Part shown: positions 13,705-20,348 of the stretch, piece by piece | Layout: the number at the start of each line of letters is the position of its first letter | How positions within the stretch are numbered: the stretch's first letter is position 1 | Source of the DNA: an uncultured Syntrophales bacterium | Lineage (GTDB): Bacteria; Desulfobacterota; Desulfomonilia; Desulfomonilales; Desulfomonilaceae | NCBI GenBank assembly: GCA_964385875.1 | Contig: CAYLRL010000001.1 | Coordinates: 112,131 to 176,130, forward strand | DNA: 64,000 nucleotides | Direction of reading: 5' to 3' | Position numbers and translations under genes: made by a program | Notes under the pieces: model-generated | Seen by the model: only the letters and a program-made list of their open reading frames with translations | Told to the model about the DNA's origin: nothing | The model's database searches: none

Positions 13705-15042
13705 CTAGCGCAGAGTGCTGCGTTCGGTCGAGGAATCCTTGACGAGGACCATGTCTCCCAACTTGATCAGTCGGGCGCCGGCGACCCGGCGAAAGCGCGA
13801 TTGGAGGGGTTTGGGCACATGTCTTAAGGCGGTGATCATCTTGACCTTGAGCGGGTCGACGTGTTTGCCTTTGACGAGGAGCTGGAAGTCCAGATGCGGA
13901 CCCGTGGCCAAGCCGGTGGCGCCGACGAGACCGATACGTTGTCGCTGCTTGACGCGGCGCCCCTTCTTCACCAGGATTCTGCTGAGATGCCCATAGCGGC
14001 TCTCGAAGCCGTTCTCGTGAGTGATACAGACGTACTTCCCGTAGCCCTTTTTCCATCCCGCGAAGGTAACGACGCCTCGAGCCACCGACCAGACGGGCGT
14101 CCCTTTCGGCGCGCCGTAATCGACGCCGTTGTGTTTGCGCCATACACGAAGAATTGGATGAAAGCGTCTGCCGTATTGTGAGGTGACTCGAAGCACGCTG
14201 AGCGGTGATCGCAGGAAGTTCTTTTTGAGTTCCCGTCCGTTTTCGTCGTAGTAGGTTCCGTTGAAGAGGACCGCGACCTTCTTGCCGGTCTTGCGCCCCT
14301 GGTAGACGGCGCACAGGATTCGACCGTATCCCGACGGACGATCGTCCGCGTAGCGTCGTTCGAAGAGGATTTTGCAGACGTCGCCCCGCATTGATTCGGA
14401 CTGGAAGTCGATATCCCAGCGAAAGACGTTGGTGAGTTTCAGGGCCAATTCCATGCCTTCGCCGGTCTTGAGAAGCGACTCGGTGAGGTTGCCCGCTATG
14501 TCGAAGGAGACGGTTTCGGGCTTGAATTCGAGGACCACTTCCTCTTTCCAGGCCCTGACCTGATTTCCGTCTGCCGTCGCGTGGAAGACATGGGCAACGT
14601 CCATGTCGATGCCGGCCTTGAGGAATCCGCCTTCGCTGTCTAGGGTTATGGTGTATCTGGCGCCGGGCTTGAGCGGTCGATGAGGCGTGAATTTGGGGTC
14701 GAGACCGCTCCTGATAACCGACGCGAGGCTGTGCGCGGCCTTCTCGACCCATTCCGGCTTCGAGATATGATACTCGAGCACCGAGTAGAGCGTGTCCCCT
14801 TGTCCGGTGATGTCCGTTACCTCGACGGAACATACGGGCGCGGATTCCGGTTCGTTCGGAACCTCGGCCTGCGGAATCGCGCACGCGGCCGCGCCGGGCG
14901 GAACCGATGCATTCGCTTTGGGCGGTTCCGTCGCTATCGAGAGTGCGCCGTCAAGATCGGGGATACACCAGAGGTAGCCGCCGACGGCCAATCCGCCGAG
15001 CATGAGGAACGTGAGAAAGAAGATTTTTCCTGACGATCGCAT
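13705..15042 (-). CDS. M23 (LytM-type) peptidoglycan metalloendopeptidase
   Basis: It has an N-terminal TM/signal segment. The C-terminal region reads HNGVDYGAPKGTPVWSVARGVVTFAGW...GYGKYVCITHENGFESRYGHL...GATGLATGPHLDF, giving the HxxxD and HxH zinc motifs. Confidence 0.85.
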   Translation of the reverse strand: MRSSGKIFFLTFLMLGGLAVGGYLWCIPDLDGALSIATEPPKANASVPPGAAACAIPQAEVPNEPESAPVCSVEVTDITGQGDTLYSVLEYHISKPEWVEKAAHSLASVIRSGLDPKFTPHRPLKPGARYTITLDSEGGFLKAGIDMDVAHVFHATADGNQVRAWKEEVVLEFKPETVSFDIAGNLTESLLKTGEGMELALKLTNVFRWDIDFQSESMRGDVCKILFERRYADDRPSGYGRILCAVYQGRKTGKKVAVLFNGTYYDENGRELKKNFLRSPLSVLRVTSQYGRRFHPILRVWRKHNGVDYGAPKGTPVWSVARGVVTFAGWKKGYGKYVCITHENGFESRYGHLSRILVKKGRRVKQRQRIGLVGATGLATGPHLDFQLLVKGKHVDPLKVKMITALRHVPKPLQSRFRRVAGARLIKLGDMVLVKDSSTERSTLR

Positions 15043-15732
15043 GCAGCCCGCACCGAAACGTTCTCGAAAGGGATCCGGGGGAATAACGCTTCTCCCTGTC
15101 TTCGGCTTTCAAAGCTAGCATTAATCCCGGTCTCAGTCAACCTCTTATCGGAAAATGACCGCGTGGAAATGTCACACCGTTTTTTCAACCTGTGGAACAT
15201 TTCCGCATCGGCGCTGTCGTACTCGAATATCCGCAAACACGGTTATGGGTTAAGACGCTCTTCCACAGCACCCTCACGAGGGAGGCGCAGCAGCCGTCTA
15301 AACAGCGGCGGGGAGTACGGGCGCCATGAAACGAGACCAACAGAGCTGGCTGAGGGATTACGCGGTGACCTGTCGAGTTTTCAAGGGCAGATGGAGCATT
15401 CGTCATTGCTTGCGAATGTACAATGACATCAAGGATTTGAGGATCCAGATGTCCTCGAGAGCCAAAGGCAAGGTCACACGTCATGAATCGGCGTACAATC
15501 CGTGCGAGCACTGCCGAGTCCTTGACGAATACCGGCGGGCGCAGTGCCTCGAGGAGCGTTACGCTGAAGCGGGGAATGCGGTGAGCGACGGCGCATGGGC
15601 CGTATGATCCCCTGAAAAACTCCGTTCTCTGGACTGAACCGACACCCGTTCCGGGCGGCGATAACGTTCAACCTTGTCAACCTGAAACAAATCCAACCTG
15701 TTTTCCAACCCTTATCCGCTTCAGCCAACGTT

Positions 15733-18700
15733 TCATGCCATTTCACGCTCGATGACGCCGAGCACGTCATGGACGCCGTGAGGCCGCTTGTCCGGATTCT
15801 TGTCCAAACATTCCAGAATGAGCGGATCGATCCAATCGGGAACCGTCGGATTTGAGAGTCTCGGGGGCGCGGGAAAAACCTTGGCATGTTGGAACTTGAA
15901 ATCGTCGAAGGACGGCCCTTCGAACGGCAGTTCCCCGGTGAGGATAAAGAAGAGCAGCACCCCCAGCGAATAAACCTCGGCCGCGCGCTCCTTGATCACG
16001 CCGGAGCGCGTGCGGAAGAACTCCGGCGGCATATACGCCGGGTTCATGCCGGGCTCCTGCCGGCGAGGCTGCTTGGCCATGGTCAAGTTGCGATATATCT
16101 GCGAGTAACCGAGGCTCGCAATCCTGCACTCGGACAAATCGCCGCTGACGAGGATCTGCGAAGGCTGAAGGTGAAGGTGGAACGCGCGACGAATGCGGCC
16201 GTCCCGCCCTTTGTGATTGTGCGCGTACGCCAGTCCCCTGATGATCGCGCGGGCCAGTTCCATCCGAACATCCAAATCGATGCTTTCTTCCGAAGTGAGG
16301 ACCTGTTCGAGGGTTCGCGGCAGATACGGATGAACGAGCCCCTGTCGATTCTGACCGCTTTTGACGATTTCTTCCAGCCGCAGGACGTTCTCGTGTTCCA
16401 TATTCCACGAGAGTTCGGCCACGTCCTTGACGAATTGCTCGAAAACGTTCGGCTCGAGGAGATCGAACTTGAAGATCCGAAGTAACGCGGTCCTGCCGGT
16501 GTTGACTTCGGATGCGGCGTGCCAGACACCCCATCCGTCCGCGGAGATGACCCCGACCTCTCGGTAGGCCATGGACCCCCTCGTGGGACGGAAAAGTTGC
16601 ATCTCGTCCACTTCACTCCGCATCGACAGGGCTTCATGGCTCGAGACAAAGGTCGTCGCGTCTCGAAGGGGCTGCGGCTCGAGATCGACCGCGTGGACTA
16701 CCTGCTCGGGCTCTTCATAGACTGGACCCGGTTTGGGCGCCGGCGCGGTTTCTTTCGTCGGTTTCTCCGCGTTCTGCTCGGTCCGAGATTGCGGGTTCTT
16801 CTCAGGAAGAGCGCCGGGCTTCGCTTCTTCAGTCGGAGCGGCTTTCCGGGGCTCTTCAGCCGGAGGACGAGCCTTCACCGGAGCGGTCTTCTCTTTTGCG
16901 GCTTTTTTTGCGGCGGGTTTGCCGACGCGTTGCGAGGTTCTCGCCCGCTTCTCCTCGGCCTTCGGGTCCGCGGGAGCTTCGGTTTTCGCTGTGGCGGCCT
17001 GCTTCCGGGCCTGCTTTGGAGCAGGTTTTGCCTCCTCGTGGCCCTCTACCGGCTTGGGGGCCTTCGCCTGCGTCCTTTTCGGCGATTCGGACGACGGCGC
17101 GGCCTGCGTCGCGGCGCGTGATTTCGCATGCTCCGCGTACTGTTTGTACGCCTTCTGTTTGGGATTTCGCTTGGCGGCCTCCGCAATGACCCGAAGGGCC
17201 AACGGATCGGTGGACCTTTTTCCGATCAGCTCCTGCGCGCAGAGCTCGATAACGTCGTCCGTGCCGGTCTGCGTGACGAGATCGAAATGTCCGCCCGCAA
17301 CGGCAAGTTTAGCCGCGCGCTTGGCCGCTTCCCTGTCGCCCGGCCTCTGCCTGCACAGTTCCAGGACGTGTTTGAGCGCCTTGCCGGGCTCGTTTCGCTT
17401 GTTGTAGGCTTCGAGGAGCGCCCGGCGGATGACCGCGTTGTTCGGTTCGTGTCGGATAAGGGCCTCGAAGATCCTGACCGCCTTGTCATCGCTTGCTTGT
17501 CGTTTGACGAGTTGCTTGAGGATCTTCCCATTGAGTTCCCGGTTGCCCTCCTTGATCGTCTCCTCGATCATATCATTGTCGATGACGCATTGAGCCAGGT
17601 CGGACAGATAATCGTGGCCGGGCCCGTCGATCTCATGAAGCAACCGAAGTTTTTCGGTGTATTTCTCCAGATCCCCCTGAGTCAGATAGACCGTGGAAAG
17701 CATTTTGTTCACACCGACCGCGCGCGGCTGGAACTCGAGCACCTTTTCGTACGTCGCGACCGCGTCGGAATGAACTTCGGAGTTGGCGAGATATATCTGC
17801 GCGATCTTCTTGACGATCACCGGATTGCCCTCGGAGAGGGCGTCCCGCACGCGGCCCTGTTCGACGTACAATCGAGCCGCCCGTCCCATGTAGTCTTCTT
17901 CGGCGTTCTTGTCGAGATTCTGGAGCATGGAAAGATGACTTACCGCGTTGCGGAAGTCGCCGGAAGCTTCATACTTGGCTGCCAGCATACGATGGAGCGC
18001 CATATCGGTCCGGTCATACTCGAGGCATTTCTTATAGATTCGTTCCGCCTCGTCGCTCAGGTTCTTGTCGTCCAGAAACTCCGCGCAGATCCTCAGGATG
18101 AGGTCCTTGTTGTTGCGTTCGAGCGCATGATCGGTCGCGTGATTCCGGGTGAGCATGGTCACGGAGTTCCGAATCATCTCGGGATCGGCTGCGTCGGCTT
18201 CCATGAGAGCGGTCAAATGCTCGACGACTTTGGCGGGATTGCCGAGATGGTGATACATGTCATAGAGCTTCTTGCGAATCTCGATGACTTCATCCTTGTC
18301 GGTCTCGACGTGGAGAAGGTCTTCGTATATCTCGGCGGCTTGGGCCTTCTTGCCCATCGCGCTCATCAATTCCATGCCCAGCGCGTAATCCTCGAGCGAT
18401 TTCAGACCGCCGAGGTCGCGCATCTTTTCCCAGGCCATCGCAGCTTCGTGGAACTGATTGGTTCGCTGATAGCAGACGGTCAAACGCCGGTACACGTCGG
18501 GGTTGCGCACTTCGCCGCCCTGGAGCGCGAGATACCGTTGAAATTCCCTGATTGCGCCTTCACAGTCGCCCGCTCGAAAGAGGTCTTCCGCTTCCCGAAT
18601 CAACTCCTGGATTTCGACGGCTCTACGGTCGAGGCCGGCCGACTTGCGCGCGCGTACGAAGAAGAACGCTGCGATAGCCGCCGCGGCGAAGAGGGCGATG

Positions 18701-19050
18701 ACCCCCATGATGATATATTGGGTTACGACGCTTTGACGCTCGGTCTTGAAGGGCACGGTGAACGCGGCGTGGACGTATCCTTCGCGTCCGCTGGGAAGTC
18801 GAATACGGACAAAGCCCGACTCGCGTCCAAGCGCCTCGAAGATGTCGTCTTGCAGCGCGATATCAATTATTTCGGCGCCGTGTCCGGGTTCTTTATATAT
18901 CTCCGTGTTCATTCCGTTGGGGGCTTGGATTTTGATGAGTTCCCCCACTTCTCCCGTCTGAGCCCAAACGGGAGCTCCGAGGATTCCCCCTACGGCCAAA
19001 CACGAAAGCGCGGTAATAATCAACAGTGTTCTCGGCAGAAACGTTTTCAC
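15733..19050 (-). CDS. Multidomain membrane protein: signal peptide, SH3b-like domain, TM helix, long TPR region, K/A/P/E-rich linker, C-terminal Ser/Thr-kinase-like (predicted catalytically dead) domain
   Basis: Signal peptide MKTFLPRTLLIITALSCLAVGG...AQT. The SH3b-like segment reads FVRIRLPSGREGYVHAAF. The TM segment is IIMGVIALFAAAAIAAFFFV, followed by many TPR-like helices. The last 277 aa align by eye to Hanks kinase subdomains. Confidence 0.8.
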   Translation of the reverse strand: MKTFLPRTLLIITALSCLAVGGILGAPVWAQTGEVGELIKIQAPNGMNTEIYKEPGHGAEIIDIALQDDIFEALGRESGFVRIRLPSGREGYVHAAFTVPFKTERQSVVTQYIIMGVIALFAAAAIAAFFFVRARKSAGLDRRAVEIQELIREAEDLFRAGDCEGAIREFQRYLALQGGEVRNPDVYRRLTVCYQRTNQFHEAAMAWEKMRDLGGLKSLEDYALGMELMSAMGKKAQAAEIYEDLLHVETDKDEVIEIRKKLYDMYHHLGNPAKVVEHLTALMEADAADPEMIRNSVTMLTRNHATDHALERNNKDLILRICAEFLDDKNLSDEAERIYKKCLEYDRTDMALHRMLAAKYEASGDFRNAVSHLSMLQNLDKNAEEDYMGRAARLYVEQGRVRDALSEGNPVIVKKIAQIYLANSEVHSDAVATYEKVLEFQPRAVGVNKMLSTVYLTQGDLEKYTEKLRLLHEIDGPGHDYLSDLAQCVIDNDMIEETIKEGNRELNGKILKQLVKRQASDDKAVRIFEALIRHEPNNAVIRRALLEAYNKRNEPGKALKHVLELCRQRPGDREAAKRAAKLAVAGGHFDLVTQTGTDDVIELCAQELIGKRSTDPLALRVIAEAAKRNPKQKAYKQYAEHAKSRAATQAAPSSESPKRTQAKAPKPVEGHEEAKPAPKQARKQAATAKTEAPADPKAEEKRARTSQRVGKPAAKKAAKEKTAPVKARPPAEEPRKAAPTEEAKPGALPEKNPQSRTEQNAEKPTKETAPAPKPGPVYEEPEQVVHAVDLEPQPLRDATTFVSSHEALSMRSEVDEMQLFRPTRGSMAYREVGVISADGWGVWHAASEVNTGRTALLRIFKFDLLEPNVFEQFVKDVAELSWNMEHENVLRLEEIVKSGQNRQGLVHPYLPRTLEQVLTSEESIDLDVRMELARAIIRGLAYAHNHKGRDGRIRRAFHLHLQPSQILVSGDLSECRIASLGYSQIYRNLTMAKQPRRQEPGMNPAYMPPEFFRTRSGVIKERAAEVYSLGVLLFFILTGELPFEGPSFDDFKFQHAKVFPAPPRLSNPTVPDWIDPLILECLDKNPDKRPHGVHDVLGVIEREMA

Positions 19051-19196
19051 GGATATTCCCTCGCGCCGAGGAAGTGCTTATATAAAGACCGGCAGTGTAT
19101 GTACGGCAGCTTACCACGAATAGGAAGTCCGGGCAAATCCGCAATTACCGGACATACCAAAGACAAACACCACCTTCATACGGAGTGATCGATCAG

Positions 19197-20348
19197 ATGG
19201 CGACCGAGAAAAGTTTCGAACAAGGCCCTATTCGTCCGCCAAGCGAGGCGGGCAGTCTCCTGATTCGCGCGACGAGGAACTGTCCATGGAATAAATGCGC
19301 TTTCTGCGGAACCTACACCGGTCGGAAGTTTTCGAGGAGAAGTGTGGATGAGGTCAAGGCCGACATCGACGCGGCTCGGGCCATCCTCGACGACATTAAG
19401 GGAATGTCGTGGAAATCCGGTCAAGGCGGCGGTCTCACCCGGCGAGTTTTGTCCGACGTCTTCCGGAACCCCGCCCTGAACGACTGCTATCGCTCGGTGG
19501 CGTTATGGCAGGCTTCGGGAGGAGACACCGTCTTCCTCCAGGACGCCAATTCGGTGATTCTCTCCACCGACAAGCTCGTCGAGATTCTCAATCATATCAA
19601 GGAAGTATTCCCCGGCGTCACCCGCATCACCTCGTACGCCCGGGCAAATACGCTCAACGCAAAGTCGGTCGACGATTTCAAGCGATTGAAGGCCGCAGGG
19701 CTGACGCGGCTGCACGTGGGTATGGAGTCGGGATCGGACCGGGTGCTCAAGCTGATCGACAAGGGCATGACCGCCCAACAGATCATCGAAGCGGGGCGAA
19801 AAGTTGTCGAATCCGGCATTTCGCTCTGTATGTATATTATCCCGGGCATCGGCGGCAAGGAACTCAGTATGGAAAACGCGCTCGAATCCGCGCGGGTGGT
19901 CAACGCGGTCAATCCGGACCACGTACGTTTCCGCTCGCTCCACGTCCGACGCGGGACCAAATTGAAAGAGATGGAAGAGCGAGGCGAATTCACCGCGCCG
20001 GACGAAGACGAAATCGTGCGGGAAATCAGAACCTTTGTCGAGAAACTCGACGGGGTCACGACCACCCTGGTCAGCGATCATATCCTCAATCTCCTGGAAG
20101 AGGTTGAAGGAACGCTCCCGGACGACAAGGAGAAGATACTCGGGGTGATCGACCGCTATTTGGGCATGTCCGATGAAGATCGCGCGCTCTTCCAACTGGG
20201 TCGGCGAGGCGGCGCGCTCCGCTCCCTCGACGAGTTCGACAACCCCGGCTTGCGAGCCCGGTTGGAGGCCGCCCGGACGGAGATCGAAACGGGAACCGGC
20301 GGCGGGCTCCGCGAGGCGATCCGTCAGATCAAGCATCGTTTTGTTTAG
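19197..20348 (+). CDS. Radical SAM domain protein (cluster motif CPWNKCAFC)
   Basis: Starts at ATG 19197 (MATEKSFEQGPIRPPSEAGSLLIRATRNCPWNKCAFCGTY). GLTRLHVGMESGSD is a SAM-binding-type motif. The first 34 codons of the track ORF are unlikely to be coding. Confidence 0.85.
   Translation: MATEKSFEQGPIRPPSEAGSLLIRATRNCPWNKCAFCGTYTGRKFSRRSVDEVKADIDAARAILDDIKGMSWKSGQGGGLTRRVLSDVFRNPALNDCYRSVALWQASGGDTVFLQDANSVILSTDKLVEILNHIKEVFPGVTRITSYARANTLNAKSVDDFKRLKAAGLTRLHVGMESGSDRVLKLIDKGMTAQQIIEAGRKVVESGISLCMYIIPGIGGKELSMENALESARVVNAVNPDHVRFRSLHVRRGTKLKEMEERGEFTAPDEDEIVREIRTFVEKLDGVTTTLVSDHILNLLEEVEGTLPDDKEKILGVIDRYLGMSDEDRALFQLGRRGGALRSLDEFDNPGLRARLEAARTEIETGTGGGLREAIRQIKHRFV

Follow-up and report, generated by a model that had tools for sequence, protein, structure and literature searches.

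Here we analysed a window, meaning the whole stretch of 64,000 nucleotides, from an uncultured Syntrophales bacterium of the Desulfomonilaceae (contig CAYLRL010000001.1, positions 112,131 to 176,130 of the forward strand), and focus on a gene at 15733..19050 (reverse strand) whose product is most likely a non-catalytic docking receptor, a membrane protein with the type-I organisation of a receptor. The Hanks-fold domain at its C-terminus is probably a pseudokinase that serves in some way as a non-catalytic binding module, and it would act by binding rather than by phosphotransfer because five phosphotransfer residues are replaced family-wide under purifying selection. An initial annotation of this DNA had likewise suggested a scaffold or receptor rather than an enzyme, and this is the reading that the sequence data best support. 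The list of open reading frames (ORFs) and the translation give an intact frame of 1105 amino acids (aa) with a GTG start and a stop codon at 15733-15735. The protein consists, in order, of a signal peptide, an SH3b domain, one transmembrane helix, a TPR superhelix, a disordered linker and the C-terminal Hanks-fold domain, and about 50 full-length orthologues are 41-48% identical to it across the whole protein.

Kinase fold and the residues at its catalytic positions

The Hanks-fold pseudokinase domain (aa 819-1105; 15736..16596, on the reverse strand like all features of this gene) was recognised by Pfam, AlphaFold2 and Foldseek. Pfam Pkinase (PF00069) matched aa 882-1091 with an E-value of 4e-18 and 66.2 bits against a cut-off of 31.7. 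The AlphaFold2 model of aa 796-1105 showed a PknB-like kinase fold, with a predicted local distance difference test score (pLDDT) of 89.8 and a predicted template-modelling (TM) score (pTM) of 0.87, and its best Foldseek matches in the PDB were PknB and PknA (E 1e-16; TM-score 0.70-0.83, reaching 0.83 on the target). In a phmmer search against PDB sequences, query residues 7-263 aligned with PknB of Mycobacterium tuberculosis (E 4e-13), placing R858 opposite PknB K40, HLHLQPSQ opposite HRDVKPAN and SLG opposite DFG. The same columns were obtained when MAFFT was used to align 51 family members to 12 canonical kinases, and also from hmmalign with the 13 canonical kinases that this genome itself encodes; the latter placed no Lys, Asp or DFG-Asp at the catalytic positions. 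A wrong register in the initial by-eye alignment could be ruled out, since phmmer, MAFFT, hmmalign and the AlphaFold2/Foldseek match to PknB and PknA all agree.

In this register, R858 (16477..16479) replaces the β3 (VAIK) Lys, H-L-H-L-Q-P-S-Q (aa 958-965; 16156..16179) replaces H-R-D-L-K-P-x-N, and S-L-G (aa 979-981; 16108..16116) replaces D-F-G; these substitutions had been read by eye in the initial annotation, and their positions proved exact by ORF translation. The residue set of an active Ser/Thr kinase is not present, as R858, H960, Q965 and S979 occupy the positions of the β3 Lys, HRD Asp, Asn and DFG Asp, and of the three residues of which a pseudokinase, as defined in sequence, lacks at least one (VAIK-Lys, HRD-Asp and DFG-Asp), all are lost, with the loss conserved in the orthologues. 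The Gly-rich loop, also described as degenerate in the initial annotation, reads S-A-D-G-W-G-V-W (aa 836-843; 16522..16545), with D838 at the second Gly of GxGxxG and W840 at the position of PknB Met22; in the AlphaFold2 model it is a turn of three residues joining strand 829-837 to strand 841-848. No catalytic or metal-binding residue is left in the kinase fold. A search of the invariant columns for a 'migrated' Lys or Asp, as in WNK, gave none conserved in the N-lobe or catalytic loop except the P-loop D838.

A search of 5.8 billion proteins recovered the approximately 50 full-length orthologues, which are 995-1145 aa long and 36-57% identical in the kinase part, and all of them came from Desulfomonile or Desulfomonilaceae metagenome bins, with scores falling sharply below them to generic kinases. 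When 1.8 billion cluster representatives were searched exhaustively with HMMER, only 14 clusters belonged to this SH3b-TM-TPR family (TM here standing for transmembrane). The substitutions recur in orthologues of such low identity and are not due to chance. Among the 51 aligned family members, the β3 Lys column contained Arg in 49 and Leu in two (Lys in 12/12 reference kinases), the HRD Asp column H45, Q3, T1, N1 and D1, the catalytic-loop Lys column Q44 and H7, the catalytic-loop Asn column Q29, L7, H5, V3, M3 and N2, and the DFG Asp column G31, S12, N4, C2 and A2, with Asp in 0/51. The HRD His was kept in all 51 and its Arg replaced by Leu in 44, the Gly-rich loop columns read D51-G47-W51-G48 where canonical kinases have G-G-M-G, and the αC Glu column was variable (E20/Q17/A6/D4).

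The near-invariance of H958 and H960 at catalytic-loop positions raises the question of an atypical enzyme, in which the conserved His958-x-His960 and Arg858 would carry out a non-canonical reaction such as an unusual phosphotransfer, an AMPylation-like reaction or another one, and some proteins first called pseudokinases did turn out to have unexpected activities. We consider this very improbable, because the domain has lost its five canonical catalytic residues, its P-loop glycines and any metal ligand, and because position 960, which is Asp in a single orthologue (P0053), Gln, Thr or Asn in others, and Ser, Asn, Met or Ala in the sister clades, varies in a way that a catalytic His would not tolerate.

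Selection on the domain was estimated from the ratio of non-synonymous to synonymous substitution rates (dN/dS), which ranged from 0.04 to 0.24 for the kinase domain in 24 ranked orthologue pairs with 74-99% aa identity, one further ranked pair having a saturated dS and giving no value. Mean identity to the orthologues was 57% in the C-lobe, 61% in the best TPR segment, 34% in SH3b and 14% in the linker, so that the best-conserved part of the protein is the TPR segment of aa 301-470 and the C-lobe ranks above SH3b and two of the three TPR segments. These data show that the kinase domain is under strong purifying selection, being a selected pseudokinase and not a decaying one, and the dN/dS values together with the domain-wise conservation indicate that the dead active site is a selected state in which the replacement residues are constrained as well. 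That the domain could be an evolutionary relic, a functionless decaying kinase carried by a functional SH3b-TPR protein, is scarcely credible: the loss of every catalytic residue would fit such a relic, but the dN/dS values already contradict it, as do the conservation of the C-lobe, the absence of stops and frameshifts (none of either) in the window's copy of the gene, and a domain that folds with high confidence.

Outside the substituted positions, the C-lobe keeps its structural motifs, as had been noted initially, including PPE, in which E1010 is invariant (51/51), D/E-x-Y-S-x-G and an equally invariant Arg of subdomain XI (51/51). The activation segment (aa 982-1010; 16021..16107) is of full length to P-P-E, with R987, R996 and E1010 each conserved in 41/41 sequences and a conserved Ser/Thr at 990 (T24/S12 of 41). 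A 10-residue insertion, H-K-G-R-D-G-R-I-R-R (aa 946-955; 16186..16215), lies between helix E and the catalytic-loop strand, where all canonical kinases aligned have an 8-residue gap; its columns D950 (39/41), G951 (41/41) and R954 (35/41) are conserved, and the insertion is common to zinc-ribbon and TPR-only pseudokinase clades described below.

Architecture, topology and proposed mode of action

The signal peptide, SH3b-like domain, single transmembrane helix, TPR region and K/A/P/E-rich linker proposed in the initial annotation were borne out by Pfam, hydropathy and AlphaFold2, which agree on them. A hydropathy scan found only two membrane-grade hydrophobic segments, at aa 3-31 and aa 106-136. 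The first belongs to the signal peptide (aa 1-30; 18961..19050), which has a K/R n-region, a hydrophobic core and a terminal VWA followed by Q, and it is assigned as such because the equivalent N-termini of all orthologues have the K/R n-region and end in A/G-Q. It is followed by the SH3b-like β domain (aa 37-101; 18748..18942), predicted to be periplasmic, for which Pfam SH3_3 (PF08239) matched aa 51-97 (31.5 bits, cut-off 27) and AlphaFold2 predicted seven strands with pLDDT 88-91. The single transmembrane helix (aa 106-136; 18643..18735) reaches a maximum of 2.70 in a 19-residue Kyte-Doolittle window, starts at 114 in the AlphaFold2 model and is followed by RARKS. From the signal peptide, the SH3b domain, the one transmembrane helix and the positive-inside rule (RARKS), we infer that SH3b is periplasmic and that everything after aa 136, including the TPR superhelix, the linker and the pseudokinase, is cytoplasmic.

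The TPR-like superhelix, cytoplasmic by prediction (aa 140-648; 17107..18633), contains about 25 helices and was matched by several Pfam TPR families spread over aa ~150-580. The full-length AlphaFold2 model, built on 43 orthologues with a mean pLDDT of 80.9, showed helical repeats at aa 163-648 with pLDDT >90, and Foldseek with this model gave only generic TPR superhelix matches (OGT, CTR9). The disordered K/A/P/E-rich linker (aa 649-795, ~150 aa; 16666..17106) had pLDDT <50, and the disordered stretch of the full-length model extended over aa 646-812 with pLDDT <50. Close to the kinase fold, within the disordered region (pLDDT <50 at aa 796-811), lies a short linear motif, A-T-T-F-V-S-S (aa 798-804; 16639..16659), with the family consensus V-T-T-F-V-S-G and the strongly conserved columns T799 (38/41) and T800, F801, V802 and S803 (each 40/41), which makes TTFVS a candidate phospho-acceptor or docking site. 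A promoter and terminator scan of 15000-19400 found nothing beyond the shuffled expectation.

The protein could accordingly be viewed as a receptor of type-I topology, in which an ectodomain of the wall-binding type comes first, a long TPR arm extends into the cytoplasm and the dead kinase forms the C-terminus. In the mechanism that we propose, the SH3b ectodomain would bind peptidoglycan or an envelope protein and thereby position or gate the receptor, while a cytoplasmic docking platform would be built from the TPR superhelix together with the C-lobe surfaces that the pseudokinase has kept intact. D838 at the second P-loop Gly and W840 at the loop tip, together with the missing metal ligand, would probably exclude ATP and lock one conformation. 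The likeliest inputs would be the TTFVS motif, a Thr with Val at +3, and the activation-segment Ser/Thr 990, which might be phosphorylated in trans by one of the 13 canonical Hanks kinases, then read by FHA proteins and reset by the two PP2C phosphatases. The same genome encodes these potential partners, with 13 canonical kinases, five FHA-domain matches in four ORFs and 2 PP2C phosphatases, and we offer the phospho-motif/FHA step as a tentative suggestion that could well prove wrong.

Several points weigh against this account. The SH3_3 score barely exceeds the Pfam cut-off, the gene context described below gives no support for an envelope role, the idea that D838 and W840 probably block the ATP pocket is read only from alignment positions, and the phospho-motif/FHA step is drawn only from analogy with MviN and FhaA of M. 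tuberculosis. Furthermore, the conservation of R858, H958, H960 and Q962 themselves could mean another ligand-binding or catalytic pocket, and a β3 Arg is compatible with nucleotide binding, as in KSR1 and EphB6 and as predicted for ActPs2 and DYD (PMC12599244). It is conceivable on these grounds, if unlikely, that the domain is a non-catalytic, ligand-gated switch whose remodelled pocket (R858, D838, W840, H958, H960, Q962) binds a nucleotide or small molecule without metal and so changes the choice of partner; its replacement residues are conserved as catalytic residues normally are, and the β3 Arg is found in pseudokinases that bind ATP as well as in families for which ATP binding has been predicted (PMC12599244). 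Against such a switch, an acidic residue at the second P-loop Gly, which is Gly52 in PKA, should repel phosphates, no Asn or Asp remains to hold metal, and the αC Glu position is variable.

Distribution, relatives and gene neighbourhood

One species-level genome set contained 39 loci with the pseudokinase gene, all from Desulfomonilales. An order-wide survey of 70 Desulfomonilales genomes, comprising one family and 26 genera, found the gene exactly once in 42 genomes from 22 genera, and in most Desulfomonilales it is vertically inherited. The four genera from which it is absent (g2, g3, g4 and g19) have smaller genomes and fewer kinase candidates. Five of the 42 genomes had an open frame of only 380-821 aa at the pseudokinase part, the gene being interrupted upstream of the kinase fold (G027:C1:204100-205023, G029:C3:408214-409143, G031:C58:3276-4199, G040:C56:54729-55655 and G041:C17:11941-12870); either genuine splits or frameshifts introduced by assembly of the low-complexity linker could account for this.

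After the orthologues, the next best single-domain matches share the insertion and are without the HRD Asp. They comprise zinc-ribbon proteins of ~480 aa with an N-terminal CxxC...CxxC ribbon (P0133, P0136, P0140, P0148) and proteins with TPR and pseudokinase but no transmembrane helix (P0141, P0149), and a third group of relatives keeps H-L-D. In a maximum-likelihood tree, all of these groups split from 24 canonical kinases with support of 100/100, and the SH3b-TM-TPR family was sister to the zinc-ribbon group with support of 98/91. This wider degenerate-kinase clade, defined by the shared insertion, has lost the catalytic residues to differing degrees and could provide a natural series for the repurposing of the kinase fold. 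As a separate observation, many public metagenome proteins of 2400-2600 aa (P0130, P0131, P0144, P0146 and others) carry four to six tandem kinase domains, in which degenerate copies (HGH, HRS, HRN; GLG) precede canonical ones; they dominate the whole-protein scores in searches with the pseudokinase as query and are unrelated to the SH3b-TM-TPR family.

A zinc-ribbon paralogue is also encoded in the genome of the window, outside the window itself (G000:C15:50439-51926, reverse strand; identical to P0140). Its N-terminal CPVCG...CPACG ribbon is joined by an acidic linker to the kinase fold at the C-terminus, where the insertion reads HRGKDG, H-R-D is replaced by H-L-M and D-F-G by E-C-G. Across the survey, the zinc-ribbon paralogue was present in 40 of the 70 genomes and 21 of the 26 genera, and it was missing from g2, g3, g4 and g19 too; as the genomes are related, the shared absence of both genes may reflect a single event. 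Both genes are missing from the same four genera, and we raise the idea, which we think rather improbable, that the membrane SH3b-TPR pseudokinase and its soluble zinc-ribbon sister form a catalysis-free pair, in which SH3b would read the state of the wall and the signal would be relayed by pseudokinase-pseudokinase or pseudokinase-kinase pairing and by phospho-dependent TTFVS docking. If true, such a pair would have evolved independently as a Gram-negative equivalent of the MviN-PknB-FhaA circuit of mycobacteria.

At the loci bearing the pseudokinase, its gene is flanked by a radical SAM gene in divergent orientation and by a convergently oriented gene for a 93-aa protein, beyond which follow genes for an M23 (ShyC/MepM-like) endopeptidase and a Q/P-rich secreted protein, with CtpA on one side of the locus and tolQRAB-pal-cpoB on the other. 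The neighbours were found at 38/39 (radical SAM), 38/39 (93-aa gene), 34/39 (M23) and 31/39 (Q/P-rich) loci, counts that at first sight suggested an envelope module, and the radical SAM and 93-aa genes were present in all 26 genera. Genomes that have no pseudokinase gene show the same set of neighbours, with the 93-aa gene immediately upstream of radical SAM and in the same orientation. The pseudokinase gene is an antisense insert in a conserved backdrop. Functional coupling to Tol-Pal, M23, CtpA or radical SAM could not be argued from synteny, since the four genera without the pseudokinase share the neighbourhood; the synteny reflects inheritance and is not evidence of coupling, and with synteny uninformative any envelope role has to be argued from the SH3b ectodomain by itself.

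The 93-aa gene (15326-15607, forward strand) lies within the 690 bp that separate the pseudokinase gene from the M23 gene and that had seemed free of genes, and was found in 64 of the 70 genomes. Its product was 48-64% identical in a five-sequence alignment, in which one of the five ORFs was N-terminally short, and 53-79% identical by tblastn across 38/39 loci. The protein had no Pfam or NCBIfam match; its conserved Cys residues (C16, C28 and C60-x-x-C63, of which C60 and C63 alone are invariant in the five sequences) form a pattern that looks zinc-ribbon-like. In genera without the pseudokinase, the gene lies ~270 bp upstream of the radical SAM gene (L058:5903-7538; L059:6728-8348), and it likely forms there a two-gene unit with this YtqA/Elp3-like gene. 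In the window (15326-20348), the 3.3-kb pseudokinase gene splits the two genes in antisense orientation. The M23 peptidase gene (13705-15042, reverse strand) had ShyC, ShyA and MepM as best NCBIfam matches, all below the cut-offs, and its translation reads G-P-H-L-D-F at a site which we take to be H-x-H (PHLHF) in M23 enzymes, so that in this protein Asp may have taken the place of the second His, which is a zinc ligand.

Comparison with known systems

Bacterial pseudokinases have been catalogued and are almost untested experimentally. A 2025 review recognised seven families, namely ActPs1-3, GLW, CP1, DYD and DLHK, in addition to EssB/YukC, and MviN is the only worked example among the seven (PMC12599244). 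The SH3b-TPR pseudokinase described here represents a lineage-restricted, previously undescribed family within the already recognised bacterial pseudokinases, with its function proposed from sequence. It opens no new category of biology, and its clean set of conserved replacement residues and its invariant linear motif should make direct tests easy to design.

By their published definitions none of the seven families fits, and the SH3b-TPR family is unlike all of them in lineage, motifs and architecture. It is not of the ActPs3 (MviN) type, as its activation segment is complete, running over 32 residues from S-L-G to P-P-E, its transmembrane helix is N-terminal and its hosts are Desulfomonilales. 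From GLW it is separated by H-L-H and Arg, where that family has GLW for HRD and Leu/Trp for the β3 Lys, and from DYD by G/S-L-G at DFG and the loss of Asp and Asn, whereas DYD proteins carry a DYD motif in place of DFG and keep the HRD Asp and the catalytic Asn. DLHK is defined with the HRD Asp kept and without a transmembrane helix (PMC12599244), whereas here the Asp is lost and one helix is present; the 'Atlas' preprint gives this Asp as lost in 99-100% of DLHK members. CP1 proteins are COG3899 ATPase fusions without a transmembrane helix, whereas the Desulfomonilales protein has one helix and no ATPase domain, and the TPR-bearing families of the 'Atlas' preprint differ in having their TPRs C-terminal of the kinase. 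The NCBIfam models for the MADS6 antiphage kinase (NF047741; 71 against a cut-off of 460) and PknB_PASTA_kin (NF033483; 64.8 against 450) reflected generic kinase-fold similarity only.

ActPs2 (O'Boyle et al. 2025) resembles the Desulfomonilales protein in its β3 Lys to Arg change, the loss of the HRD Asp and DFG Asp, and its membrane association. Among its defining motifs, however, only the β3 Arg is shared: ActPs2 is actinobacterial, with HRD Asp replaced by Asn, DFG deleted, inserts of ~32 aa between β3 and αC and of ~250 aa in the activation loop, and a C-terminal transmembrane helix, whereas the Desulfomonilales protein has His at the HRD Asp, keeps x-L-G and contains neither insert. Closer at hand, the zinc-ribbon pseudokinases (P0133, P0136, P0140) have the same insertion (H-R/K-G-x-D-G-x-x-R-R/K), an EPGxxPAxxxPE activation segment and no HRD Asp, but they are soluble, ~480 aa long, with a ribbon instead of SH3b-TM-TPR, and keep the β3 Lys and an acidic DFG position (D/E-C-G).

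PASTA kinases of the PknB/PknA/Stk1 type are the best matches in sequence (E 4e-13) and fold (TM-score up to 0.83), and they also combine a wall-binding ectodomain, one transmembrane helix and a cytoplasmic kinase fold. They differ in being active, with an N-terminal kinase and C-terminal PASTA domains, whereas the Desulfomonilales protein is inverted, with an SH3b ectodomain and its catalytic residues replaced. Eukaryotic receptor pseudokinases, such as PTK7, RYK, ROR1/2 and plant receptor-like kinases (RLK), also have type-I topology, with a signal peptide, an ectodomain and one transmembrane helix, and their dead kinase domain lies in the cytoplasm, where it serves for docking or as an allosteric module; they belong to tyrosine-kinase-like or RLK lineages with other ectodomains and have no specific sequence relationship to the bacterial family, so that the resemblance is in design only.

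MviN (Rv3910; ActPs3; PDB 3UQC) is likewise an intracellular pseudokinase without the three catalytic motifs, on a membrane protein with an extracytoplasmic sugar- or wall-binding domain. In M. tuberculosis it works as a scaffold, in which phosphorylation by PknB recruits the FHA protein FhaA, and aromatic residues fill its ATP pocket (PMC12599244). MviN is actinobacterial, with a deleted activation loop and a C-terminal transmembrane helix, and both its domain order and the side of its helix are unlike those of the Desulfomonilales protein, among whose best sequence or fold matches it does not appear. Nevertheless, MviN would provide the best functional analogy for the Desulfomonilales pseudokinase, in its mode of working and not in family membership.

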